Source of the DNA: a virus
Lineage: Duplodnaviria; Caudoviricetes
Length of the DNA stretch: 51,414 bases
IMG/VR virus record: IMGVR_UViG_3300008448_000127
Location: 1 to 51,414 of that record
Reading direction: 5' to 3' (one strand)
Within the stretch, counting starts at the first letter, position 1; each line of letters begins with the position of its first letter. The notes under the pieces are model-generated. The model ran no database searches. It saw only the letters and a list, made by a program, of their open reading frames with translations, and was not told the origin of the DNA. The position numbers and the translations under genes were made by a program. This document shows, in pieces, positions 10,382 through 49,015 of the stretch.

Positions 10382-11654
10382 TTTCTTCTACCAACCTAAA
10401 GGCATCACGAATCCACTTAGCACACTTCAGGGTTTGAATAGCACGACCACGAGCAGGACGGTTATCGGTATCGTTGGGGATGAAGATACCGAGACTGATC
10501 AGATCATCGATTCGTCTGCTGATTGTTTCCAGAGGGATGGAGCACTGGAAGCTGATAGCAGTCTTGGTCAGACCAGCAGCGGAAAGTGCCACTGTTCGAA
10601 TGATATTATGCTGACGAGAGAATGCTGTGTCCAGTGCAACCTTGGTGAGAAGTGTACGAATCTGCTGAGTAATGGAATCCGTACCCAGGACGTAGCATAG
10701 ACAAAGAGCAAGACGGGACAACTGTTTGACTACGCGAGTTGAGGCTTCTGGGCGAGCATCGTACAGTAGTTCAGAGTTGCCGAACTCTTTGCTCCGAGGT
10801 GCTTGGGCACGGCTACAGGCGATCATATCGGCTAACGCTTGAATGAGATCCACGTCCATGGTGGTATATTTTGGCCGCAGTACGTCATCAGTTCTGATTC
10901 TGGAGTGAAGGAAGCTAAGGAATCCTGCAGTATAGGCCCGTTGCTTCGGGAAGGATCGAGAGTCACCTGCGTCGTTTCCTTCGAAGTTGGTTCGTGCGGT
11001 GGATTCAAAGATAGACTGAACAGCCTTCGAGTTTCTTCTGGTTTCAACATCGCGAGTAGTCTCAAGGCGACAATGAAGGAAACGCTCTCCAAGGGCAGCC
11101 ATATTGAGAGAATAAATCCGTTCAGTAATTCCAATGACCATACCAAATGCGATATTGGTAAACGATGCTGAAACGCCGTTACGGTAATGAGCTTCGAGAC
11201 TGCCATCGAAGATATCACGCAACTCCCCATAAACGTTTGCCAGTTGCTGCGGAGTACTTTCCAGAAGGAGGGTGCCGTCTTTGACCACAACGCACTTTCC
11301 CTGGAGCATTGGTATGAGGTGAGATCCTTGTCGAGAGCCAGAAACCAGTCCGGTAAACTTCGACAGAGGGCGAGTATGCAGTTCATCAGAAGACAGCAGT
11401 TCGCATATAGTCGATTTACCACTGGAAGGTGCTCCTACTAAGTACATCCAAAGAGGGTCACCATCGAATGCAACAGCAATATGAACTGCCATACAAAGTG
11501 CCATACAATCTTCGAGTGACTGTGTAACGCTCATACCGGACTTGTACACTTCCATCAGTTTGTGGAAGGAGTCACAAGCCTGTGGCTGGACTGTTACCAC
11601 TTCGTCCAGTTTAACTTCTGAGAGGTAGGATTTGATCAGTTCGATGAAGTTCAT
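10263..11654 (-). CDS. AAA+ (MCM-like) replicative helicase with C-terminal winged-helix-like region
   Basis: Walker A GAPSSGKST, LRDIFDG, and LGERF (Arg-finger-like). Lies next to primase and PolA. Confidence 0.7.
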   Translation of the reverse strand: MNFIELIKSYLSEVKLDEVVTVQPQACDSFHKLMEVYKSGMSVTQSLEDCMALCMAVHIAVAFDGDPLWMYLVGAPSSGKSTICELLSSDELHTRPLSKFTGLVSGSRQGSHLIPMLQGKCVVVKDGTLLLESTPQQLANVYGELRDIFDGSLEAHYRNGVSASFTNIAFGMVIGITERIYSLNMAALGERFLHCRLETTRDVETRRNSKAVQSIFESTARTNFEGNDAGDSRSFPKQRAYTAGFLSFLHSRIRTDDVLRPKYTTMDVDLIQALADMIACSRAQAPRSKEFGNSELLYDARPEASTRVVKQLSRLALCLCYVLGTDSITQQIRTLLTKVALDTAFSRQHNIIRTVALSAAGLTKTAISFQCSIPLETISRRIDDLISLGIFIPNDTDNRPARGRAIQTLKCAKWIRDAFRLVEENVTLSFSQDTQSEQSTTPPVRPVPTKRPNQRPIPNPRKR

Positions 11655-12280
11655 CGTTTGCGTCCGTTCGTAAATTTCTGGGAAGGAATCAGTGATCCCC
11701 ACTGGTTAGCCATAGCTTCAGCAATACCGGAGTAAGTTATCGATCGTAGCTTACCTCTGTCTGGTGAAGGTGACATCTTCCAGATGTTCTGATCACGCCC
11801 TTCGACTATGTTTGTGGGGGTAAGTGGTGGTAGATTCTTCAACCAAAGGCAGGTTGCTTTTGTCTCACCATGACCGAACATCCAGGGTTGAATGATTTGA
11901 TCTGGTTTGCGATACAAGCGAGACATAATACCGATCGGGTTCTCGATACACAACCTATGGCATTTTAGTTGGGTGCATAACGTAAAGAAGTCAACACCTT
12001 GTTGTCGTAGGATCTGCCCTTCTTCGGCTGTGTACTTCTTGCAGCCATGGGTCATTGCTTTGTTGTTACTGACTGTGAGATACGTACAAGGTGGGTGAGC
12101 AATGATCAGGTGCCAGTGGAGGTTCAGTGCGATTAAACGCTCCAACGGCATCTCGAAGTGCTTCATCTCAAACTCAGACGGTTCTGAGGGTAAGATGTCA
12201 CACGACCAGGCATCGTGCCCACGTCTTCGGAAGGCGTCCCTCACAGCACCGCTGAACTCGCAGGCAACAAGTACACGCAT
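11651..12280 (-). CDS. Phage C5-cytosine DNA methyltransferase-like protein
   Basis: Motifs VLVACEFSG, SCD, HPPCTY (catalytic PC), IENP, QPWMFG. Confidence 0.8.
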   Translation of the reverse strand: MRVLVACEFSGAVRDAFRRRGHDAWSCDILPSEPSEFEMKHFEMPLERLIALNLHWHLIIAHPPCTYLTVSNNKAMTHGCKKYTAEEGQILRQQGVDFFTLCTQLKCHRLCIENPIGIMSRLYRKPDQIIQPWMFGHGETKATCLWLKNLPPLTPTNIVEGRDQNIWKMSPSPDRGKLRSITYSGIAEAMANQWGSLIPSQKFTNGRKR

Positions 12281-13052: not shown

Positions 13053-13285
13053 TAGATCATTCCTATGACTAAGCCGCATACGGCACAACGTCTGATATCC
13101 CATGCGTATGCTGGCGTGTCGTAAACTAGTAACTCTACCTGTTGATGGTTACAAGGTTTGCTCATGAACTCTGTTATTTCTTCGGGTGAGGCTTCACGGA
13201 TGTTTGCTGCTCCGCAGTTCCCATCAATTCTTCTAGGTTCATTTGCCGTTTCTATGAAGTACTTCGGTGTGCTAGCTACAGACAT
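13052..13285 (-). CDS. Small Cys-containing hypothetical protein
   Basis: Fills the gap between PolA and primase; CNH...CAVCG. Confidence 0.6.
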   Translation of the reverse strand: MSVASTPKYFIETANEPRRIDGNCGAANIREASPEEITEFMSKPCNHQQVELLVYDTPAYAWDIRRCAVCGLVIGMI

Positions 13286-15261
13286 ATCTTTGTTTCCTTA
13301 TCCCAGCGGTGAGTGATTAAGTTTGCTTCAACAGGGGCATGAATGCCGTATTCGCTTGCCGCCTGTTCCATAAGTGATACGAGGTTACGCACATGCTTCT
13401 TCGGCACACGAACAGGTACTTCGAAATCGACCTCGTCGTGAACTTGGAGTGCAATTCGCCCTTCAGGATATTCTGAGAGAAGATAGTCGTCGCATAGACG
13501 CATGGCACGTTTGACGATGACTCCTTCAGCACCCTGGACAATGTAGTTTACTCCAGCATGTGCCGCTTTCTCAATACGACCTGTCCACTTATTGACATGT
13601 TCTTTGAGTTCCAGTGGGTAGTCACCAAGTGTAAGTACGTATCCCTGTTCGTTGATTAGTTCCTTTGTTTGCTCGATGAAGGCGTGAGCATTAGGGAAGA
13701 GAGTCGTAACAGTGTCCCAGAGACCAGCGATTCCTGCCGTAGCTTCGATCTTCTTAGGAGACGCTCCGAAGACGAACCCGAAATTGACATTCTTCGCAAC
13801 ACGACGCTGGGCCTTTGTTGGTGACTGGCTGTCGGGTACATTGAATATCTTTCTGGCAACGAAGTCATGGGCGTCCCATCCTCTGTTGAAGGCATCCATC
13901 ATTTCCTGTTCATTGGTGACGTTAGCAAAGATACGTAGTTGTAGCTGGGAGTAATCCATTGTTAACCACCACTTGCCAGGAGGTGGTCCGAAGACTGATC
14001 GCATTGACGGTGAAGCCTGCAGCCACTTAGCAATGTCAGGTGCATCGTCTTCGTATGGGTTACCAGCCTTCGTGATATTCTGGGCGTTAGGATTGTTGCT
14101 GCTGAAGCGTGTGGTCTTGGTGCCCACGATGTTGAACGAAGGGTGGATGAAGCCTGATGAACTTCTGGCATGGTAGTACGACTGAAGAGAAGTTAGTTTC
14201 TTCTCATACTTCTTCTTGCTTAGATACGCTCCCAGGAATCGGTGTACAGGACTTCCCGGTTCTGCATCTTCATGCAGTGCGAGGATGGTTTTGGCATCGA
14301 CTGACGGACTTCCTGTTTTGGCTGACTTGGTGATGGGTTCGAGTTTAAGTTTACCGAAGAGGTATTCTCGGAGATTGTGGTCAGTAATGTGATCAATGCC
14401 TGAAAGTTTGCTAGTTTCGGCAGTGAGCAGTTGTATGAATCGTTCACAAGCATCAATTGACTCCTTCAGTTCAGGGATGTTGACCCACAGACCAATAGTT
14501 TCCATCTTCCAGGTAATGTGCTCTACCTGTTTGTTGATCTCCAGTAGTTCCGTAGTCTGTTCACCGTGACGAGATAGTAGTTCGTGGAAATACATTTCAG
14601 CCAGTTCAAACGTATTGACACAGTCCGCTTTAAGATAGCGAAGCATGACGTTCTTGAGGACTGAGTCCGGGAGTTTAGGTCTTCTGGGTTGCGGAATAAG
14701 TGCGAGTACTGCGTCAGGGAGCCAAAAGTCAGATCGGTTCCATTTGCTGGACGATCCGTACATCTTAAATGTTGGGTGATTTCCGTCACGTCTTGCAATG
14801 TCCCACCTGCTGCAGATATCCTGGAGTGCCTTGGTCTCGACGAGTCTTCGGCATTTATTAACGGCATTGATCAGTTCCTTATCTTCCGGGTAACCTTTAC
14901 CTAAGTATTTCTGAGTGAGAACATCAAGTGAAAGTTCGTCAGTGCTACAGTGGAGGTGGGCAAGGATAGTGGTGTCTACGATCCTTTTCCAGAACGAGGC
15001 TTCTGTTGGTTCTTGCCAGTCGTAGATTCCGGCTTCGCAGAGTGCTCTAAGGTCGAAGTGGGCGTTGTGGAAGGAGATGATGTCTGCGTTGTCAAAAGCG
15101 TTTCTAAGAGACTTCGGATGCTCTTTAGTTCTTCGACGAGTGACTGGATCAATTCCAACTGTTGACGATTTGAATGTGGTTCCATCGTAGATTCCAATAC
15201 TGAAGGTGGTGCAGCCATTTCTAAGCCAAAGACCCGTCGTCTCCGTATCTGCTGCAATCAT
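13276..15261 (-). CDS. polA: DNA polymerase family A with 3'-5' exonuclease
   Basis: ExoI DTETTG, ExoII HNAHFD, ExoIII YLKAD, TTRFSSNNPNAQNI, motif A DYSQLQLR, motif B RRVAKNVNFG, motif C VHDE. Confidence 0.95.
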   Translation of the reverse strand: MIAADTETTGLWLRNGCTTFSIGIYDGTTFKSSTVGIDPVTRRRTKEHPKSLRNAFDNADIISFHNAHFDLRALCEAGIYDWQEPTEASFWKRIVDTTILAHLHCSTDELSLDVLTQKYLGKGYPEDKELINAVNKCRRLVETKALQDICSRWDIARRDGNHPTFKMYGSSSKWNRSDFWLPDAVLALIPQPRRPKLPDSVLKNVMLRYLKADCVNTFELAEMYFHELLSRHGEQTTELLEINKQVEHITWKMETIGLWVNIPELKESIDACERFIQLLTAETSKLSGIDHITDHNLREYLFGKLKLEPITKSAKTGSPSVDAKTILALHEDAEPGSPVHRFLGAYLSKKKYEKKLTSLQSYYHARSSSGFIHPSFNIVGTKTTRFSSNNPNAQNITKAGNPYEDDAPDIAKWLQASPSMRSVFGPPPGKWWLTMDYSQLQLRIFANVTNEQEMMDAFNRGWDAHDFVARKIFNVPDSQSPTKAQRRVAKNVNFGFVFGASPKKIEATAGIAGLWDTVTTLFPNAHAFIEQTKELINEQGYVLTLGDYPLELKEHVNKWTGRIEKAAHAGVNYIVQGAEGVIVKRAMRLCDDYLLSEYPEGRIALQVHDEVDFEVPVRVPKKHVRNLVSLMEQAASEYGIHAPVEANLITHRWDKETKICL

Positions 15262-15317
15262 TTTACGTGCTTCCAAATTAGGCGTCTGTGTTTATTGTAA
15301 GGCACGGTAATACTCCG

Positions 15318-15374: not shown

Positions 15375-16193
15375 TTATGCTTCTGGCAGGATCAGATCAT
15401 CGAACTTGACGTTCTTGATTGTCTTACCAGCACGTTCCAGTGTCACTGTTCCTGCGTCGTCGTCAGCATCGACGACTTTGAAAGTGAGTGGTTTTGGTGC
15501 CTTGGCTGGCTTGTAATCGACTTCAAAGCCAATCCAATCAGACGGATTGAATTCTGCTTCAGCATCGTCCTCAGCAGGCACGTCTTCCTCAGCGAGTTCT
15601 TCTGACCATTCATCGTCATCGACCGGGACATCGTCAACCACATCTTCCTGTTCGGCTTCATCAGTTTCTGAGGAAGAATAATCTTCATCGCTATCGACGT
15701 GACCGATGATGTTGAAGTAGAAGCCATCCTTCTTTTTGTTAGGGGCAACACGGATCTTAAACTGTTCACCGATCAACTTCTTCAGTTCAGCATCGATCTG
15801 CTCAGTTGTCATGTCCGCAGTTGGTACACCGAGGCACTGAATGTCAACCATCAGACGGTCCAGAGCCTGTTCGATCGTGCTACGATCAGAGTCATTCAGG
15901 CTATGGAACACACCGATGCGAGCACCGTTGTGCTTTTCCTGTCCTGCCACAGTTCCGTCAACATTGAACTCAAGGATGTAGTAGGTCTTACCGTCCTTGA
16001 CAATAATGGACGGACCTTTGAACTTAGTAATGTACTCACCGGGTTCTCCAGCAAAGTCACGATTACCGACTGCCTTCTTAGCCACTTCGACGTGCTTCTT
16101 CAGTCGAGCGTTGGCTTTCATCAATTGTGCGAGTGAGGTTACTTCTGCCATTTTAACAGCTTTCTTCCAATCAGAGTCAGTGAAGTTGGTCAT
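15375..16193 (-). CDS. Putative single-stranded DNA-binding protein
   Basis: OB-fold-like N-terminal half (PGEY...), long acidic tract, position next to a Sak4-like ATPase and PolA. Confidence 0.65.
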   Translation of the reverse strand: MTNFTDSDWKKAVKMAEVTSLAQLMKANARLKKHVEVAKKAVGNRDFAGEPGEYITKFKGPSIIVKDGKTYYILEFNVDGTVAGQEKHNGARIGVFHSLNDSDRSTIEQALDRLMVDIQCLGVPTADMTTEQIDAELKKLIGEQFKIRVAPNKKKDGFYFNIIGHVDSDEDYSSSETDEAEQEDVVDDVPVDDDEWSEELAEEDVPAEDDAEAEFNPSDWIGFEVDYKPAKAPKPLTFKVVDADDDAGTVTLERAGKTIKNVKFDDLILPEA

Positions 16194-16543
16194 TGTTTAT
16201 CGGCACGATTAACGGCGTCTGCGTTGGTGTATTTCAATGAGGAATACCGCTTTGATAACTTTTGGATATTTGCTTCTAAGCACTGTTCGCGTGTAATTGA
16301 CAGCCCTTGGCGAATGCCTTCTAGATAGAACTCTAAGTCACCAAGTTCTTCAATGACGTTGTCGAGGTCTAAGGCCTTGCGGTAAATAACGCGTTTCTTT
16401 ATTGCATCGAGAAGTTCACCAGATTCGCCACTAACACCAATTGCCATGTGCATTAAGTGAGCATCTTGGTCAGTAATTTCTTTTGCAATTTGCTCTCCGG
16501 GTTTTACAAGAGCGGAAACAAGTTCAGGGTGTGTAATAGACAA
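16190..16543 (-). CDS. MazG-like nucleotide pyrophosphohydrolase
   Basis: Motifs GVSGESGELLDAIKK, EELGDLEFY, NIQKLSKRY. Confidence 0.9.
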   Translation of the reverse strand: MSITHPELVSALVKPGEQIAKEITDQDAHLMHMAIGVSGESGELLDAIKKRVIYRKALDLDNVIEELGDLEFYLEGIRQGLSITREQCLEANIQKLSKRYSSLKYTNADAVNRADKQ

Positions 16544-21333: not shown

Positions 21334-21927
21334 TCATGGCTTATGAATGACGTAGGACCAGGGCATGTACGAAACAATTTCTGAGATGAAATATACATCC
21401 AGACCTTGGGACTCTGCGAACTTAAATACGGCAGGCTGGATGTACTGAGACCATCCATGGTTTACTTCATTGACGCACACAATATCATGACCAGCAAGCA
21501 ATCCACCAGATTTTATCTTAGGCCACCACAGATTGATATCTTCTGTGACGAATGGTTCTTCGTGGTTCCCGTCAAGGTATACGAAGTCCAGTTCGCCGTC
21601 CTCAAATAACTGTTCTGCTGCTCGTTTCGATGTCATTCGAAAGCCGCAGCATCGTGGGTTGTATGGCGTAATCAGTTCTTTGAAGTGCTGGAAGTCTTGG
21701 TTTCTATCAACGCTATCCCACAGGTACTTAGCCTGCTCCTTGTACTCCGGCAGATTTTCCCAAGGGTCCACACAGTATAGATTTCCTTCCGTCCAGTGCT
21801 CAAGTATTTTAGCGGCGAACTCTCCACGATGTGTTCCCACTTCAACACCAGTACCGTGGAGACCCAGCTTGTTGAGGTACAGCCCGAACTGATCACGACT
21901 GTCGATTTCAATCTTAGATATGATCAT
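21334..21927 (-). CDS. Class I SAM-dependent methyltransferase (Methyltransf_24-like)
   Basis: Motifs VEVGTHRG, VDPW, DFVYLDGNH, WWPKIKSGGLLAGHD. Confidence 0.9.
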   Translation of the reverse strand: MIISKIEIDSRDQFGLYLNKLGLHGTGVEVGTHRGEFAAKILEHWTEGNLYCVDPWENLPEYKEQAKYLWDSVDRNQDFQHFKELITPYNPRCCGFRMTSKRAAEQLFEDGELDFVYLDGNHEEPFVTEDINLWWPKIKSGGLLAGHDIVCVNEVNHGWSQYIQPAVFKFAESQGLDVYFISEIVSYMPWSYVIHKP

Positions 21928-22670
21928 TAGGATATCCTACAAACAAATTCTGGGATGAGACTTCCAAGATGGCGACGATGAATCTTGTTGTGTCGATCTC
22001 TGACAATAACGTATGTTGGTGAGGTTTCCTTACCGTCATGTTCTTCAATAAAGATTTCCCCACCATCCGAGAACACACGCAACCCATGACCAAAATAACT
22101 TCGAGCAAACTCAATCTTAGTCGGATCATGGTTTGATTGAGCTTCTGGGCTGAAGCAGTACGTATACAGTACTTCGCTTATGTGGTACCTTGAAGGTTTA
22201 CATATCTTAAGCAGTGGTCGGTACCATAACTGATCGTCTGCATAGCCTAGCTTGTCAGACCAGGCTACTCTGGTAGCAACACTTTTCTTCCAGGCACACA
22301 GATGGTTGGAAGACATATGCCCTATTTCAGGTTTGTCTTCATCGCTATCAAGAATCCACATTTCACTAAACTTAGGAGCGTGCCTTGCCATGTTGAAGCT
22401 AACTACATCAGCATTAGATTTGATGCCTTCGAGTAGTAGCTGTACGTACCAAGCACTAACAAAGTCGTCATCATCAACGAACGCAATGTACTCTCCTTGT
22501 GCTTCCTGAGTTAGATGATTACGTTTTGCACCGCTGGTTAGAGTACCAGCATCAGCAAACCAAAGAACTTCTACATCACCAACAAATCGGAGTGCTTGAT
22601 GCTGAAGTTCTTTGATCAGTGGAGCGTAGTGGCGTGATTCTAAGCACGGCACAAGGATGGATAGCTTCAT
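21927..22670 (-). CDS. Family 2 glycosyltransferase
   Basis: Motifs LSILVP, GAKRN, GEYIAFVDDDD, ADD. Confidence 0.9.
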   Translation of the reverse strand: MKLSILVPCLESRHYAPLIKELQHQALRFVGDVEVLWFADAGTLTSGAKRNHLTQEAQGEYIAFVDDDDFVSAWYVQLLLEGIKSNADVVSFNMARHAPKFSEMWILDSDEDKPEIGHMSSNHLCAWKKSVATRVAWSDKLGYADDQLWYRPLLKICKPSRYHISEVLYTYCFSPEAQSNHDPTKIEFARSYFGHGLRVFSDGGEIFIEEHDGKETSPTYVIVRDRHNKIHRRHLGSLIPEFVCRIS

Positions 22671-22671
22671 G

Positions 22672-23136
22672 TCAGCGTCTTGAATTTCTTCTTTGAGTTA
22701 CCCTGTCTGCCCAGCGACAGTTTTCTGGGCAGTAGTTACCATTGTTATCAATGCGATCGAGCGTCAGATTGGAGGGTCGCAACCCCATATCAGCAAAAAA
22801 GTTTTCAAATACTAACCATCGTTCACAGACCGTAATACCTCTTTCGCCATAGTGTTTATAGTCAGGGCATTTTTTGTTACGGCACCGCGACAGCATATTC
22901 ATCCATATGGTGTACTCGGTACTTCGTTTAGTCTTTACAGAACCTGACATTCCGTGGGTAGTAATTTTATCTAAATGGTAGCATCCACAAGAGGATGTAT
23001 TGCCGCTGGTCAGTGCGTACTTCGGAGCATATGTGACGCCTCCGCAAAGGCACTCGCATTTCCAAAGCAAGTGTCTGCCTTTTGTTTTTCCCTCTTGTGC
23101 AACAACAGTTAGCCTACCGAAAGTTTGACCAAGCAT
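22672..23136 (-). CDS. HNH homing endonuclease
   Basis: Motifs [50 protein letters not shown]. Confidence 0.9.
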
Positions 23137-24060
23137 TTACTTCCCCAAGTATTGAACCACGATCCTATCCTTCTCCGGGGATAAGGTAGCAATATCTTCA
23201 AGTATGTGCAATAAATGCTTACTATTTTTCAGCTTAAAATTAGACATTTCTTCTGTGACGTGCGTTGCACTTTCATTTTGTGCAAGAGATCCGTGCCCGT
23301 TTAGAGGGACCAGGCAACGGTGACAATGGAACTCGACTTGTTTCTCGAAGTCCTGCATTGGTTTACGCCACCAACCTTTAGTTACTGACATACCTGTGTC
23401 TGGGTAATCAGGATTGTGCTGGTTCAGTATGGCTTGACTACCAGCGATCTCGCAAAAGAATGCTCGTAGCTCACCACGGAACTGGCACAGCATTGCACTC
23501 CAATGCCGATTGATAGGGCAGTTGCTGATTAGCTTCCAGCGTTCAGATTCTTCTGGGACGAACTTAGACATGTTGCCGTGGACTGGTGAGTGACGTGAGT
23601 CCTTGTCTAAACCAAATGGATGGGATTCTGGCCAGTCCTTTAGAAACTCGTGAAACGCTTCGTACTTCAAGTGTACGTTGAGGTTAGACATCGATGGATT
23701 GAATGTCTTCCTCATGACGGCACCATTACCACGAGGATGGTTACACCAAATACCGCATTTCTCTTTCGGAAAGTAGTTGCGGAGAATTGCACAGATATCT
23801 TCAAACTGTGGATGGAGTGCGGGATTTCCTCCAAAGATACCGATCAGTCCGAAGTATCCTTCCATGGACTGGAGTGCCAGTTCGAAGTTCTGGAGAGTAA
23901 TGAAGTCAGACTTTCCACCGAACTGTGAACCTTGTGTGCAGTTGCTGCACCCCAGATCGCAGGCACGGTTGAGATGGATCTGCATAACGCCGTTCATCCA
24001 TTTGCCCGGTCGTTGTGTTCCAGGAGGAATCATTTGTGCCAACGCTTCATGCTTGTTCAT
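23137..24060 (-). CDS. Radical SAM enzyme
   Basis: CDLGCSNC (CxxxCxxC), FGGNPALHP, and C-terminal cysteines including CHRC. Confidence 0.85.
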   Translation of the reverse strand: MNKHEALAQMIPPGTQRPGKWMNGVMQIHLNRACDLGCSNCTQGSQFGGKSDFITLQNFELALQSMEGYFGLIGIFGGNPALHPQFEDICAILRNYFPKEKCGIWCNHPRGNGAVMRKTFNPSMSNLNVHLKYEAFHEFLKDWPESHPFGLDKDSRHSPVHGNMSKFVPEESERWKLISNCPINRHWSAMLCQFRGELRAFFCEIAGSQAILNQHNPDYPDTGMSVTKGWWRKPMQDFEKQVEFHCHRCLVPLNGHGSLAQNESATHVTEEMSNFKLKNSKHLLHILEDIATLSPEKDRIVVQYLGK

Positions 24061-25108
24061 TGTAGATGTTCCTTAGTGCGTCAATTTGTTCAGTGAGCAG
24101 GAGGGTTTGAACTTTGTAGTCGTAGATGTTGCGAGCGTTACTTGCGTAGTGCCATTGGTGTTCGGGGTTCCAATGGGCAATGCAATCGAGGATTATCTTA
24201 CGTAGGTCAGACATTTCAATGTCAGGATGGACTCTTACCAGATTACCGTCGATTCCCGGCATAACGTCGTCGGCAGGTAGGTCAGTAATCACGATGCAAC
24301 CAGCAGCAGTTGCTTCGATAATCTTTCTGAGAGTGTAACCGTACATGCTGGACGTGCAGATGGCGACCTTAAACTCACTGAGGGTCTTCAGGTACTCTGG
24401 CGTGTTGCTTCCTCTACGATGGTATCCGGGGTGCTGCATATTAACAATAGGCATGTTGCGTTCAGCAAGGATACGCTTGCGTAGAGGGTAGGCACTAGAC
24501 ACTGCACCGGACATTAAGCAGCCACCTACACGCTCCGTATTGAATTCTGGAACAATCAACGGATCAAGTGTGTGGTACGTACGAATCAGATGCTGCTTGC
24601 GAGTGTACGGTGCCAGATGGTTGACAATGTCTTCGTGGTAGTAACATATCCACGCATGGCAACCCATTTCAGCAGCAGCCTCCGAGTGCCAGGCTGGACC
24701 TTGGTGCGAATCCTTTAGGATAGTCAATTTGAAGATATCGCTACGTTCAGCGAGGTAGTTGACATTGTGGAAGCGAGCGTTATGATCCCTGAAGTTTCTG
24801 GGATCGAAATGCCACTCACGTTTGTCCTGAATGACGAGCGTGTTGGGTGGGTATGCAGTTACCAATTTTCGAACGTCTGTGCATTCAATTGGTAAGGCAT
24901 AACCACAGTGTAGGTACCCGTTCTGGGCAAGACCGTGAGTGATCTGCCATCCTTCATCGGTCATGTGGTCCTTCATGGAGGCGACTCCGAGGACCAGACG
25001 GTGCTCACCAGCATTTAGTACTTCGGAGTACTTCGGTGCTGGTAGTTCAGGCGTAGCAGGTTTGGGCAGGGACGCGATAACGTCCGCAACTGTGCGAGGG
25101 GGCAGCAT
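24047..25108 (-). CDS. GT-B fold glycosyltransferase-like protein
   Basis: Pattern SGAVSSAYPLR, HPGY, EYLKTL..FKVAICTSS...RKIIEATAAGC. Confidence 0.75.
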   Translation of the reverse strand: MLPPRTVADVIASLPKPATPELPAPKYSEVLNAGEHRLVLGVASMKDHMTDEGWQITHGLAQNGYLHCGYALPIECTDVRKLVTAYPPNTLVIQDKREWHFDPRNFRDHNARFHNVNYLAERSDIFKLTILKDSHQGPAWHSEAAAEMGCHAWICYYHEDIVNHLAPYTRKQHLIRTYHTLDPLIVPEFNTERVGGCLMSGAVSSAYPLRKRILAERNMPIVNMQHPGYHRRGSNTPEYLKTLSEFKVAICTSSMYGYTLRKIIEATAAGCIVITDLPADDVMPGIDGNLVRVHPDIEMSDLRKIILDCIAHWNPEHQWHYASNARNIYDYKVQTLLLTEQIDALRNIYNEQA

Positions 25109-25122
25109 GGGGATGCTTTCTG

Positions 25123-26448
25123 TCAGGACATAAAATCAGGATCGAAACACTTGGATAGAGGGTGCTTGCGGTTACCGATAGACGACACTTCACCAGTATG
25201 CTGCACAAGTGAAGGATTATGTACGTACTCAGTCCACCCAGCATGGTGCATGGCAGTTACGACAGCACCGTCAATCGACTTAAAGCCTTTCTGTGAGTCA
25301 TAAACTCTTGTCTTCATGTGCGGGCTATTGAGAAGTACCTGAACGGCTTCATGACTGAACACCAGGGCAACTGCACCTCGACCAAGTTGGTACCCTTGTG
25401 GAGCACGAGCAGCAGGTACCCATCCCTTTGTCTTTACCTGCTGAACCATATCGTCATTCTCCATGAATGTAAATAGGTTCCAGTATCCTTTTTCGGGATA
25501 CGTGCATTTTGTCAAATAGGCACGTAAATTGCGTACGCACACAAAGTCATCCTGGAAGATAGCGTAGTACTGACACCATGGATCTCGAAGGTACATCTCC
25601 TGAAGAGTCAAGTACCAGTGAGCATAAGGTCCAATGTTGCTTCCACGGTAAGCGTACGTGTAACCCTGAAGCCAGTCAAATGACCCATCGTTTGGTCCGT
25701 CAACTGCAATAACAGGATCGTCGAAACCAGCAGCTTCCAGACTTTCCAGTGTAGATGGCAGCGAGTTGATTCTGGTCGGAACAGTAGTTACAGAGTACGT
25801 CCAGCGACCTGTAACCCACGGTACGGTAGTTGTAATTCTTTCGAGACCACCATTGACAAACTTGATCTCTTTACGAACCAATTCTTCGTAATCAGTGGTT
25901 GTAATGATTCTGCGATCAAAGTGCGGACTGAGGTTACCTAGTTTAATTGGGATATTAGAGGGTTTTGCCCAGGATTGAATACGCTTGACGTTTCCTTCAT
26001 GGACTGTGCCTACGACAACTTCTGAGGCAGGAACTTGTACTGGTGCCATCATTCGTATCTCACAGGCTTCTACGATCCATGAACGTACGATTTGAGAGGC
26101 AAGTGAAGGAGCGAGACGAGCAGCAAGCCTTTGGTACCACTTTGCTGCAATACGCTGCCCTCTGGCAACAATGCTATCGGCTAGTGGAATTGCTTGCCGT
26201 AACACCTGAGCAGGTGTCATGTAGTCAAGACGATCGATTTCTGCTTTACAGTCTGAGCACGGTACTTCGTTGCCGGTTTCTCGTTTGATAATTGCGTGCA
26301 GGCGAGTACCGATACCGCTGGGCGTCCGTACAAGGGTCTCTGCCTTTGGTGGCACGTTCCAACCTGCTAAAGCTGCTTTGTAGGCTTCAGCTTTGGGTCC
26401 GCCTTTATCGATCTCGTCTTGCCACACTTTGGGGATTTTGCGTTGCAC
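25123..26448 (-). CDS. GT-A glycosyltransferase with an N-terminal CxxC-containing domain
   Basis: Motifs VTTVPTR, IFQDDF, GAVALVF, PSLVQHTGEVS; N-terminal GIGTRL...CSDC. Confidence 0.75.
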   Translation of the reverse strand: MQRKIPKVWQDEIDKGGPKAEAYKAALAGWNVPPKAETLVRTPSGIGTRLHAIIKRETGNEVPCSDCKAEIDRLDYMTPAQVLRQAIPLADSIVARGQRIAAKWYQRLAARLAPSLASQIVRSWIVEACEIRMMAPVQVPASEVVVGTVHEGNVKRIQSWAKPSNIPIKLGNLSPHFDRRIITTTDYEELVRKEIKFVNGGLERITTTVPWVTGRWTYSVTTVPTRINSLPSTLESLEAAGFDDPVIAVDGPNDGSFDWLQGYTYAYRGSNIGPYAHWYLTLQEMYLRDPWCQYYAIFQDDFVCVRNLRAYLTKCTYPEKGYWNLFTFMENDDMVQQVKTKGWVPAARAPQGYQLGRGAVALVFSHEAVQVLLNSPHMKTRVYDSQKGFKSIDGAVVTAMHHAGWTEYVHNPSLVQHTGEVSSIGNRKHPLSKCFDPDFMS

Positions 26449-47215: not shown

Positions 47216-47563
47216 ATGACAGAAGATAGTAAGGTACCAATCAAGCTACACGTTAATGGTCAGTTTGTTGGGTACATCGAAAAGTTGGAGTATGAACGGC
47301 CAGTGCAGGAATTGCCGTCTGTGGACGGTTATGCCCGGTTTGCTCCTGGTAATGAGATCAGGCTAAGTGTTGAACTTACTACGCCAGTAAGTTTGCAGGA
47401 AAAGTGGAGGTTGGTGGAAAAGGGTGAGGAAGTACGGGACACAGACGAGTGGTATAGTGTAGTAGAAATGCAATGGTATCCGCTGTCTATGTTCTATCCA
47501 AACATTGATTGTAAACTGGCTGATGACGATCTTTACCGTAGAAAGGTTCTGGTGTGTGTATGA
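47216..47563 (+). CDS. Hypothetical protein with C-terminal WRL..GE...DEW module
   Basis: GGAG RBS and ATG at 47216. Confidence 0.75.
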   Translation: MTEDSKVPIKLHVNGQFVGYIEKLEYERPVQELPSVDGYARFAPGNEIRLSVELTTPVSLQEKWRLVEKGEEVRDTDEWYSVVEMQWYPLSMFYPNIDCKLADDDLYRRKVLVCV

Positions 47564-48396
47564 CGTTTAACGCAAAGATACTGGCAGACAGTACCAACAC
47601 GCTTGGTAACCGTTTGCTCACAATGGAAATGACTTATCCTCGGTTTGTTCATGCAGAGCATCTGAGGCATAGGATGTTTTCGTTCAACGTAGCATCCAGT
47701 AGGGCTATCCCTGTGGAGAAGATGATTGAGCAGGTAGAGAAGAATCCTGTCATTCCGATTCATTGGGGCAAGGCTCAGCGGGGGATGCAGGCTTACGAGC
47801 AGTTTACTGGTGTTGATGCGAATGAGTGTGTAGATCGATGGTTAACCGCCAGAGACTATGCTCTCGGTGCAGCAGAAGGGATGCTCGATCAAGGTCTGCA
47901 CAAACAGATCATCAATCGCATTCTGGAACCGTGGATGTGGTGTACCGTCATCTGTACCGGCAACATTGGTGCTTGGAATAACTTCTGGGCACTAAGGTGT
48001 CATCCAGAAGCTGAACCGCATATCAGGAAGATTGCGGAAATGACTGAAGGCATTGCTCGAAACAACGTCAGTCATCAACTTGCTGAAGGTGAATGGCATC
48101 TGCCATTGATTGGGTTTGACGGTGACGGTGAACTCAGCTTTGAGGACGCTGTGAAGGTGTCTGCTGGTCGTTGTGCTCGGGTTAGCTACTTAACGCACGA
48201 CGGCCAGAGAGATGTTCAGGCTGATATTGCTTTGCATGATCGATTGATTGCATCAAAGCATTTTAGTCCTACTGAGCACCAGGCACAGAATGTGAGCAAC
48301 TTGGCTTATGGTGCATGGGCTAATGGTAGTCTTGGTGATGGGTGGATGCAGTACAGAAAGACTCTGAAAGGAGAGTATCAGAATGAAAGTAGGTGA
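47560..48396 (+). CDS. thyX: FAD-dependent thymidylate synthase
   Basis: Motifs RHRMFSFNVASSR (RHRx7S), HKQ..NR, LR.HPEA.P.I, H.SP.EH. Confidence 0.92.
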   Translation: MTFNAKILADSTNTLGNRLLTMEMTYPRFVHAEHLRHRMFSFNVASSRAIPVEKMIEQVEKNPVIPIHWGKAQRGMQAYEQFTGVDANECVDRWLTARDYALGAAEGMLDQGLHKQIINRILEPWMWCTVICTGNIGAWNNFWALRCHPEAEPHIRKIAEMTEGIARNNVSHQLAEGEWHLPLIGFDGDGELSFEDAVKVSAGRCARVSYLTHDGQRDVQADIALHDRLIASKHFSPTEHQAQNVSNLAYGAWANGSLGDGWMQYRKTLKGEYQNESR

Positions 48397-49015
48397 TGGG
48401 TATAGACAATTGATGCGAAGTGACATAATTAGCGAAGGTGATGAGTGGTATGACTCTTTCGGTATATGGCACCCTGTAAGTGGAAGTACGATAGGTCAGG
48501 GGTATTGGACCTATGCAGGACGCTGCATAAGACGTAAAACGGAAAATAAAGTTGAGACTTCTCCTGCACCAGAACATACTAAGGAATCCAATCCGAAGGA
48601 TGCCATCGGTAGTACCAAGCCTCCAATTGCCAATGTTCCTCTCTCAGTACTTTCTGAGGTAGGAATGGCACTGGCTGAAGGTCAGTACAAGTATGGAGGG
48701 TACAACTGGCGTGTGATCGGGGTAAGGGCATCAGTCTATTGGGATGCCACATTCCGTCATATCAAGGCTTGGTGGGAAGGTGAGGACGTTGATCCAGACA
48801 GCAAGCTGAGCCATATCACAAAGGCTATCAGTGCTCTGATGGTTTTACGTGATGCTATGATTCAGGATAACTGGACTGATGATCGTCCTCCCAGAAGTAA
48901 GCAGAAGCCTGAAGAGGTTGCTGCGATGTACAAAGAAATGTTGGAACGGTTGAAAAGTCTTCAGCCTGATCCGGTACCGGGATATACTCAGAAAGGAATT
49001 GAAGATGTCAAGTGA
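48383..49015 (+). CDS. DUF5664 (dATP/dGTP diphosphohydrolase-type) domain protein with N-terminal YR...DEW module
   Basis: Pattern NPKDAIG..K.P...VP...G..KYG.YNWR...RH...W..GED.DPDS.LSH. Confidence 0.85.
   Translation: MKVGDGYRQLMRSDIISEGDEWYDSFGIWHPVSGSTIGQGYWTYAGRCIRRKTENKVETSPAPEHTKESNPKDAIGSTKPPIANVPLSVLSEVGMALAEGQYKYGGYNWRVIGVRASVYWDATFRHIKAWWEGEDVDPDSKLSHITKAISALMVLRDAMIQDNWTDDRPPRSKQKPEEVAAMYKEMLERLKSLQPDPVPGYTQKGIEDVK

Follow-up and report, generated by a model that had tools for sequence, protein, structure and literature searches.

The 51,414-nucleotide stretch of IMG/VR record IMGVR_UViG_3300008448_000127 analyzed here (the window) encodes a family A DNA polymerase (PolA) whose active site departs from that of Klenow fragment at three positions. 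Glutamine stands at the steric gate (Gln446, Klenow Glu710), phenylalanine replaces the O-helix tyrosine (Phe503, Klenow Tyr766), and glutamate replaces an alanine of motif 6 (Glu584, Klenow Ala852). The protein is a member of a large Pol I branch of uncultured phages that has gone undescribed, and the triad, written Q-F-E in the order 710-766-852, appears to be a second natural version of the pocket rather than a sign of modified DNA. On balance we lean toward a compensated rebuild of the sugar-sensing pocket, in a large uncultured subfamily of dNTP-selecting replicases, as the best explanation, with PolA as the phage's replicative DNA polymerase. The features on which the argument rests are as follows.

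13276..15276, minus strand: PolA gene encoding 666 aa, a family A polymerase with a 3'-5' exonuclease (ORF; Pfam PF01612 and PF00476)
15241..15249, minus strand: Exo I motif D10-x-E12, intact (ORF; clade alignment)
13933..13956, minus strand: motif A DYSQLQLR, D441-R448, with catalytic Asp441 (sequence; alignment to Klenow)
13939..13941, minus strand: codon CAA for Gln446, the steric-gate position, Klenow E710 (sequence; alignment to Klenow)
13765..13806, minus strand: motif B / O-helix RRVAKNVNFGFVFG, R491-G504 (sequence; alignment to Klenow; helix 488-502 in the AF2 model)
13768..13770, minus strand: codon TTC for Phe503, the Klenow Y766 position (sequence; alignment to Klenow; MAFFT alignment)
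13522..13548, minus strand: motif 6 NYIVQGAEG, N577-G585, in the long palm helix 572-602, with N577 = N845 and Q581 = Q849 (alignment to Klenow; AF2 model)
13525..13527, minus strand: codon for Glu584, the Klenow A852 position and covarying third site (position by Klenow alignment; coordinates from the ORF start)
13432..13440, minus strand: motif C H613-D614-E615, Klenow H881-D882-E883, intact (alignment to Klenow; clade alignment)

PolA is a family A DNA polymerase, with both domain profiles above their curated cut-offs: 200.6 bits against 34.3 for PF00476 (DNA_pol_A), and 35.8 bits against 23.6 for PF01612 (DNA_pol_A_exo1), the 3'-5' exonuclease domain that forms the N-terminus. The AF2 model (pLDDT 91.1, pTM 0.91) has a Klenow-like fold, its best Foldseek matches being G20c Pol I, Klenow, and Bst at probability 1.00. 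Pol I large fragments (Klenow, Bst BF, KlenTaq) share this two-domain fold, with Foldseek TM 0.74-0.81 on the target, and are also the top sequence matches among solved structures (E 2.7e-30). Common to both are the catalytic Asp/Asp/Glu, the residues equivalent to R754, K758, F762, N845, Q849, and H881, and the exonuclease motifs, while overall identity is only about 20% and PolA differs in having Gln for E710, Phe for Y766, and Glu for A852. Unlike canonical bacterial Pol I, it has no 5' nuclease domain, and it falls well short of the NCBIfam Pol I equivalog models NF004397 (225.5 bits against 720) and TIGR00593 (179.6 against 600). PolA accounts for the one PF00476 match in the record, which is 98% complete, and a profile search of the same record gave no match to the polymerase families PF00136 and PF03175, so that no other DNA polymerase is recognizable there.

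Motifs A and B align to the Klenow fragment chains in the HMMER alignment, with "dysqlqlr" opposite "dysqielr" and "rrvaknvnfgfvfg" opposite "rrsakainfgliyg", which makes Gln446 the equivalent of E710 and Phe503 that of Y766. Motif B reads R491-R-V-A-K495-N-V-N-F499-G-F-V-F503-G, in which F499 aligns to Klenow F762 and is kept, as are R491 and K495. The paired substitutions reported by the first-pass annotation are therefore real at the level of codons and alignment, and its statement that they sit beside intact catalytic and exonuclease residues is borne out as well. D441, D614/E615, R491, and K495 align to Klenow D705, D882/E883, R754, and K758 and are invariant in the clade, as are exonuclease residues D10, E12, D75, Y214, and D218 in a 38-sequence alignment; R390, N577, and Q581 (motif 6) are also kept. 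What PolA does not have, with Gln446 and Phe503 in place, is a glutamate steric gate hydrogen-bonded to the O-helix tyrosine. That Glu-Tyr pair is a conserved trait of family A, and it forms no part of the profile definition.

We took the best 150 of approximately 24,000 PolA matches, and the MAFFT alignment of relatives holds 260 rows, 258 of them readable, the other two being fragments without the motifs. Motif A carries Gln in all 121 sequences made up of the query and its 120 best relatives, at identities down to 32%. At positions 710, 762, and 766, the readable rows are distributed as Q-F-F in 224, E-F-Y in 19, E-F-F in 10, Q-Y-F in four, and H-L-Y in one; the last, P0254, has His-Leu-Tyr-Glu at 710/762/766/852. 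The Gln gate thus occurs in 228 of 258 rows, always with Phe766 and never with Tyr766, and 224 of the 228 retain the "gate assistant" F499 (Klenow F762). Reading IMG/VR loci by regular expression missed 9 of 71 altogether and motif 6 in 18 more, and these are reading failures rather than contrary cases. A single hint of a host was seen, L073, on a contig from a Caulobacter-labelled metagenome-assembled genome (MAG). The Gln/Phe pair is neither chance nor a sequencing error; how far it spreads, a question attached to the original observation, has the answer that it is a clade trait.

The same alignment brought out the third site, which the first-pass annotation had overlooked. Glu584 is present in 227 of the 228 Gln/Phe rows, the remaining one having a gap, while position 852 is Ala in all 29 rows with a Glu gate (10 of 10 with Phe766 and 19 of 19 with Tyr766). 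Neither Gln710 with Tyr766, whatever the residue at 852, nor Gln710 with Phe766 and Ala852 (Q-F-A) was found among the 258 readable rows. To judge from this covariation, the closer partner of Gln446 is Glu584 and not Phe503. The first-pass suggestion of co-adaptation between Gln446 and Phe503 therefore holds insofar as the two are coupled, and fails insofar as Phe503 is not the tightest partner. The AF2 model places Gln446 in the opening turn of helix 445-454 and assigns Glu584 to the long helix 572-602. We propose a contact between the two side chains, though judging by where it lies on its helix Glu584 might point toward the DNA or R390 instead.

Intermediate states can be recognized among the phage relatives and in prokaryote genomes. 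Clustering at 50% identity gave 148 representatives, of which 117 are Q-F-E, 19 E-Y-A, 10 E-F-A, one H-Y-E, and one Q-F-gap; among 80 loci from prokaryote genomes, 37 are E-F-A, 21 E-F-D, 20 E-F-E, and one Q-F-E. Phe766 thus stands beside Glu710 in 78 of the 80 prokaryote-genome loci as well as in some of the phage relatives. The states E-Y-A, E-F-A, E-F-(E/D), and Q-F-E are all present, so every step of the path from E-Y-A to Q-F-E occurs in nature. The Pol I sequences of Myxococcota and Patescibacteria-type MAGs (L074-L152), which we propose as intermediate states, come from contigs labelled cellular, the longest 3.3 Mb, and are 27-35% identical to the window's PolA in the polymerase domain. 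Like it they have a natural Phe766, and half have Asp or Glu at 852, but they retain Glu710 where PolA has Gln. Because Patescibacteria-type Pol I can have an acid at 852 alongside Glu710, that acid is not simply a replacement for Glu710.

A tree built with IQ-TREE after removal of the three trait columns leaves the deep branches unresolved, but its well-supported branches force at least three changes of the Q-F-E label. P0247, which is E-Y-A, is the sister of P0250, which is Q-F-E (SH-aLRT 100), and its nearest 19 relatives are all Q-F-E. Holding Q-F-E together without P0247 cost 67 lnL units, with p-AU 0.0045 in an AU test on a 29-row set under LG+G4 without a mixture model, the group having been chosen with the tree already in view. 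That value supports reversion at all three sites in the P0247 lineage, nested as it is among Q-F-E kin. P0247 keeps the motif context of its kin, and the switches therefore look like point changes rather than a swapped domain. Another Q-F-E row sits within the E-F-A / E-Y-A set. The two best-placed switches are single sequences, P0247 (on one contig of 4,177 bases) and P0243.

These placements bear on the possibility that the three residues are a frozen accident, fixed once in an ancestor and inherited with neither functional coupling nor consequence. The bulk of the Q-F-E sequences do form one radiation, the unresolved backbone would allow one main origin, and a test of correlated change is not significant: supported branches carry three independent pairs, of which 2.7 on average show the partner changing in the same direction and none in the opposite one, giving p 0.25 in an underpowered sign test. 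Against such an accident stand the absence of exceptions at the three sites down to approximately 30% identity (one gap at 584 apart), the joint reversal in P0247 together with the Q-F-E row inside the E-F-A / E-Y-A set, and the strongly deleterious effect of the single change E710Q in Klenow (PMC3715850). We regard simple inheritance of an accident as quite unlikely.

Published work on Klenow, cited here from excerpts of the papers, indicates what each substitution does singly. On its own, E710Q incorporates nucleotides slowly and acts as a mutator (Hohlbein 2013, PMC3715850), its Kd2 for the correct dNTP being 230 uM against 0.83 uM for wild type, while Y766F is wild-type-like; on rUTP, E710Q closes no better than wild type (K2 0.056 against 0.083; Table 1 of the same paper). 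By these data it is Gln, and not Phe, that calls for compensation, and Gln alone leaves the gate shut, which leads us to a compensated sugar-pocket rebuild in a normal replicase. The long palm helix, which carries motif 6, interacts with both E710 and Y766 (Meli 2016, PMC4882331). Whereas each laboratory mutant carries one change, the natural Q-F-E enzymes carry both together with Glu852, a combination for which we found no Klenow construct in the literature searched.

Under the compensated rebuild, Gln446 would be an isosteric, uncharged stand-in for the gate glutamate, the tyrosine hydroxyl being lost with Phe503. The new invariant carboxylate, Glu584, one turn past the minor-groove-reading Gln581 in the long palm helix, would take over the role of the Glu710 carboxylate, holding and orienting the gate side chain and preserving the pocket's charge. 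The shape of Gln446 would still exclude a 2'-OH, and the enzyme would stay an ordinary proofreading polymerase that selects dNTPs; normal substrate choice by Q-F-E enzymes is our assumption. The likely order of events would be Tyr to Phe, a near-neutral step, then Ala to Glu, and then Glu to Gln.

Two other readings take the Gln gate as a change of function. In one, the enzyme would be a deliberately error-prone or slow replicase that raises the phage mutation rate, as the mutator phenotype and low kpol of Klenow E710Q might suggest (PMC3715850). The proofreading residues are invariant, however, the strict co-occurrence of Glu584 points to compensation, and PolA is the sole polymerase of a genome of approximately 50 kb; we consider this reading very unlikely indeed. 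In the other, sugar selectivity has changed as an adaptation to host pools or defences, so that rNTPs or 2'/3'-modified nucleotides are tolerated or chain terminators are rejected more strictly. Positions 710, 762, and 766 of Klenow reportedly determine rNTP and ddNTP discrimination in family A, a result attributed to Astatke in 1998, and all three pocket changes are strongly conserved. Gln is nevertheless isosteric with Glu, the gate assistant F499 is retained in nearly the whole clade, and the rUTP measurements on Klenow E710Q (PMC3715850) run against a loosened gate. We hold changed selectivity to be improbable, and the same goes for its structural version, in which moving the carboxylate from motif A to the motif-6 helix would alter the sugars accepted or rejected, with 2'-substituted sugars tolerated or chain terminators excluded more tightly.

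The first-pass annotation had favored altered selectivity, possibly for a modified dNTP, and had tied it to three other genes of the window, recognized by profile matches.

16190-16543: MazG
47554-48396: ThyX-like protein
48383-49015: dGTP_diPhyd_N protein (DUF5664)

On that reading the pocket is fitted to a dNTP modified in base or sugar, made or favored through MazG, the DUF5664 pyrophosphohydrolase, and ThyX, much as DpoZ works with the Z-cluster. The window also encodes a glycosyltransferase and a radical-SAM protein, and the presence of Phe at Tyr766 in DpoZ, mentioned in the first-pass annotation, is in print as the one change common to both DpoZ clades (Czernecki 2023, PMC10201439; Czernecki 2021, PMC8599892; both cited from excerpts). 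The phiVC8-like and Wayne-like DpoZ (clusters #18 and #19 among the 19 PolA clusters of Czernecki 2023) resemble the window's enzyme in being phage PolA with an intact exonuclease and that Phe (B4). They are said to differ from other PolA by the Phe only (PMC8599892), which implies a Glu gate where the window's PolA has Gln, and they are accompanied by PurZ where it is not. Pol I from MAGs of Myxococcota and Patescibacteria, chromosomal by appearance, has Phe766 too, and in the excerpts of PMC10201439 the DpoZ authors themselves judge Phe unlikely to select Z over A.

Genes of known modification pathways, together with ThyX, dGTP_diPhyd_N, and MazG, were looked for in 24 related phage records, each 40 kb or longer; 15 of these records are 90% complete or better. 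Neither the window nor any of the 24 has PurZ (PF00709), while a control search was positive in 14 of 14 genomes; ThyA-family proteins (hydroxymethylases) and TGT/DpdA are likewise found in none of the 24. ThyX occurs in seven, dGTP_diPhyd_N in six, and MazG in at least seven, since short matches in six-frame translations score weakly and several records have a sub-threshold candidate. Several related genomes that are 100% complete have none of the six. The NCBIfam models phage_DpoZ_1 and phage_DpoZ_2 give PolA 78.6 bits against a cut-off of 500 and 59.5 against 350. We reject a Z-genome, or identity with DpoZ, on the absence of PurZ from the window and the 24 records and on these scores; a link to ThyX, DUF5664, and MazG as a clade property, on their presence in only six or seven records each; and the hydroxymethyl-pyrimidine and 7-deazaguanine pathways, on the lack of ThyA-family and TGT proteins in the 24. 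The proposal of a modified dNTP, with its tie to the three genes, is not upheld, and we now rate it as quite unlikely.

No polymerase of the Gln-Phe type in a cultured phage was found by tblastn among 50,697 deposited phage records. Whole-protein identity to the window's PolA is at most 25% among the matches listed; for P0181 and P0185 the corresponding values are at most 30% and 29%, and P0176 has no match at E 1e-30 in the same records. Over the stretch from motif A to motif B, identity is at most 45.1% among the matches listed, and all 722 matching records lie below 60%. Literal searches of papers for the motif strings gave no match, and no description of a polymerase with a Gln-Phe gate was found in the literature searched.

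The Glu710-Tyr766 pair is held invariant in the polymerase literature, being termed invariant or universally conserved in excerpts of PMC3715850 and PMC4882331, and models of fidelity and of sugar discrimination give it a central place. Here a large natural clade has Gln at the gate, always with Phe766 and Glu852 (one gap), though E710Q alone wrecks Klenow. The clade and its natural intermediates amount to a ready-made epistasis map of the pocket. Two printed statements are corrected, in that Phe766 is not confined to DpoZ and is not missing from other polymerases, and it is therefore unfit as a marker for Z-genome polymerases. The Q-F-E triad offers a new starting scaffold for engineering sugar selectivity. 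If sugar selectivity has in fact changed, the enzyme would give this whole uncultured phage lineage something that canonical Pol I lacks, either in its replication chemistry or in resisting host defences based on nucleotides.

A single DNA polymerase, PolA, was found in the window, an IMG/VR virus contig estimated to be 98% complete whose structural genes (terminase, portal, protease, HK97-type capsid) mark it as a tailed phage. The gene belongs to a replication module that also includes a helicase-like ATPase, a methyltransferase, a Toprim primase, MazG, an AAA_24 ATPase, a PD-(D/E)XK nuclease and a resolvase. The features that concern us are:

13276-15276, minus strand: PolA, 666 aa, 3'-5' exonuclease domain and family A polymerase domain
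13939-13941, minus strand: Gln446, codon CAA in motif A, DYSQLQLR
13768-13770, minus strand: Phe503, codon TTC in motif B, RRVAKNVNFGFVFG

A HMMER alignment with Klenow fragment chains places Gln446 at the gate residue E710 and Phe503 at Y766, and shows identical residues at Klenow D705, R754, K758, F762, N845, Q849 and H881-D882-E883. An AlphaFold2 model built from 38 relatives is confident (pLDDT 91.1, pTM 0.91); its best Foldseek matches are Thermus phage G20c Pol I, Klenow and Bst.

Directly upstream of PolA, a 272-aa ORF (15375-16193, minus strand) without a Pfam or PHROG match has a strongly acidic C-terminal third; this tail and the ORF's position recall a single-strand-binding protein. 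A 209-aa protein (11651-12280, minus strand), encoded between the helicase-like ATPase and the primase, matches PHROG 757 (DNA methyltransferase) and has no Pfam match. The window (1-51414) contains no tRNA or tmRNA genes. A block at 21927-26448 on the minus strand separates the replication and structural modules:

21927-22670, minus strand: family-2 glycosyltransferase
22672-23136, minus strand: HNH endonuclease-like protein
23137-24060, minus strand: radical-SAM protein, weak match
24047-25108 and 25123-26448, minus strand: two large ORFs without a family match

The first-pass annotation singled out the Gln/Phe pair, and alignment with PolA sets shows substitutions that are real and stronger than claimed, being clade-wide, coupled, and spread over three sites. 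In a 5.8-billion-protein collection, motif A Gln is present in all 121 of the sequences comprising the query and its 120 best relatives, at identities down to 32%; the contigs of these relatives are mostly about 45-53 kb. When 1.84 billion cluster representatives were scanned in full with HMMER, 467 proteins reached E 1e-30 or better, and the best 150 of these were used. States at Klenow positions 710/762/766 in a MAFFT alignment of 260 rows, two of them fragments without the motifs, are Q-F-F (224), Q-Y-F (4), E-F-F (10), E-F-Y (19) and H-L-Y (1); Gln710 is thus joined to Phe766 in 228 rows and to Tyr766 in none. Among 71 related IMG/VR loci fetched, all 62 that were readable carry Gln and Phe, and all 44 readable at motif 6 carry Glu there, the 18 unread at motif 6 and the 9 unread altogether being pattern misses. 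No cultured phage with such a polymerase was found among the matches listed from deposited phage records.

Column comparison between groups found one further position that follows the gate perfectly. This is Glu584 of motif 6 (NYIVQG-A-E-G), three residues past the minor-groove Gln581 and aligned by HMMER to Klenow A852. Of the 228 Gln/Phe rows, 227 have Glu at this position and one has a gap; the residue is Ala in 10/10 Glu/Phe and 19/19 Glu/Tyr rows. Written as residues at Klenow 710-766-852, the triads of 148 cluster representatives are Q-F-E (117), Q-F-gap (1), E-Y-A (19), E-F-A (10) and H-Y-E (1). One relative, P0254, has His at the gate, Leu762, Tyr766 and Glu852, with motif A DFQQMHPR, another pocket variant. 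Ten clade members (P0086, P0091, P0118, P0120, P0130, P0140, P0158, P0188, P0213 and P0226) are 920-1014 residues long and align with the query in 2-5 separate stretches, which suggests that their polymerases carry inserted elements, perhaps inteins or homing-endonuclease domains; in P0086 and P0091, no single contiguous string for motif B was found.

Trees were built after removal of the trait columns, with FastTree for 148 rows and with an IQ-TREE site-mixture model for 69. Although resolution along the backbone is poor, the branches that are well supported require the Q-F-E label to change at least three times. The clearest case is the E-Y-A sequence P0247, which is sister to the Q-F-E sequence P0250 (SH-aLRT 100) within a supported group that holds 21 Q-F-E rows; in a dedicated search its 19 closest relatives (52-32% identity) were all Q-F-E, and the local context of its motifs is that of its Q-F-E kin. 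Holding Q-F-E together without P0247 costs 67 log-likelihood units (p-AU 0.0045; 29 rows, LG+G4, the group named only once the tree had been seen). Therefore all three sites changed together in one lineage. A second case is the Q-F-E sequence P0243, which falls among E-F-A and E-Y-A rows in a supported group; P0247 and P0243 are single sequences each. A correlated-change test had only three independent pairs, in which the partner changed in the same direction in 2.7 on average and in the opposite direction never (p 0.25).

Intermediate forms occur in prokaryote genomes. The scan took one genome per prokaryote species with patterns derived from the Q-F-E alignment, and its counts show existence, not frequency. 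It returned a single Q-F-E polymerase (locus L073, 68% identical to the query), on a 13-kb contig binned with a MAG labelled Caulobacter sp., the sole host hint. Pol I-like genes with a Glu gate and Phe766, some on contigs up to 3.3 Mb, account for 78 of the 80 best loci; their residue at position 852 is Ala in 37, mostly Myxococcota, Glu in 20 and Asp in 21, and the Glu and Asp forms come mainly from Uhrbacteria or Patescibacteria and from MAGs labelled Gammaproteobacteria. MAG labels across loci L074-L152, which have Phe766 with Glu710 and, in about half, Asp or Glu at the A852 position, include Myxococcota/Polyangia, Uhrbacteria/Patescibacteria, Gammaproteobacteria, Oscillospiraceae and Verrucomicrobiota. 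With canonical E-Y-A counted, each step of Y766F, then A852E, then E710Q is observed in nature; Q-Y-x and Q-F-A were not observed among the relatives and prokaryote loci read.

Phe at the Y766 position in DpoZ, the PolA of aminoadenine phages, had been pointed out in the first reading and is indeed in print: Czernecki et al. 2023 (PMC10201439) describe 19 PolA clusters and report Phe at B4 as unique to the two DpoZ clusters, and Czernecki et al. 2021 (PMC8599892) call the B4 Tyr strictly conserved otherwise. Judged by these sequences, Phe766 in L074-L152 contradicts that claim. The window's PolA is itself rejected as a DpoZ, scoring 78.6 and 59.5 bits on two DpoZ models with cut-offs of 500 and 350.

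Altered nucleotide selectivity, possibly for a modified dNTP, had been proposed from the pair and from the phage's MazG, DUF5664 and ThyX genes. We counted gene partners in those 24 of the 71 loci whose phage records reach 40 kb or more; all 24 were read as Gln/Phe, and 15 are at least 90% complete.

Gene partners in 24 related phage records
PurZ: 0/24
ThyA-family enzymes: 0/24
TGT/DpdA: 0/24
ThyX: 7/24
dGTP_diPhyd_N (DUF5664): 6/24
MazG: at least 7/24 (lower bound)

Several complete genomes among the 24 have none of these six families. The functional proposal is not supported, and the patchy counts make MazG, DUF5664 and ThyX accessory to this particular phage rather than partners of the polymerase type. 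The DUF5664 protein (48383-49015, plus strand) itself carries conflicting library annotations, with a best match to phrog_2252, 'endolysin; inhibits RNA polymerase' (E 3.4e-56), and a weaker one to a dATP/dGTP pyrophosphohydrolase PHROG. For the ThyX-like protein (47554-48396, plus strand), the match to the Pfam and TIGR profiles is confined to their C-terminal two-thirds, and its score of 53.1 bits falls short of the NCBIfam equivalog cut-off of 87.9; by these matches it is a divergent ThyX.

For Klenow, Hohlbein et al. 2013 (PMC3715850) describe E710Q as a mutator with a low incorporation rate, an overall Kd for correct dNTP of 230 uM vs 0.83 uM for wild type, and no better closing with rUTP; Y766F is close to wild type, and the E710-Y766 hydrogen bond is termed invariant across the family. 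Both residues are called universally conserved by Meli et al. 2016 (PMC4882331), who also describe an interaction of the long palm helix with the two. Neither a natural Gln gate nor these motif strings turned up in the literature searched, which does not extend to most subscription journals or to about 1.7 million PMC articles.

We propose that Gln446 would retain the shape of the gate, while Glu584, on the neighboring palm helix, would supply the carboxylate that Klenow requires; the Tyr hydroxyl, whose sole known partner is that gate carboxylate, would then be dispensable. We infer the Gln446-Glu584 contact from covariation, from helix positions in the AlphaFold2 model, and from the palm-helix statement (PMC4882331). 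Most likely, the enzyme works as an ordinary replicase that proofreads and selects dNTPs, with a pocket that is wired differently. It is a variant form within a known enzyme family, one that contradicts the assumed invariance of the gate and is open to direct bench tests.
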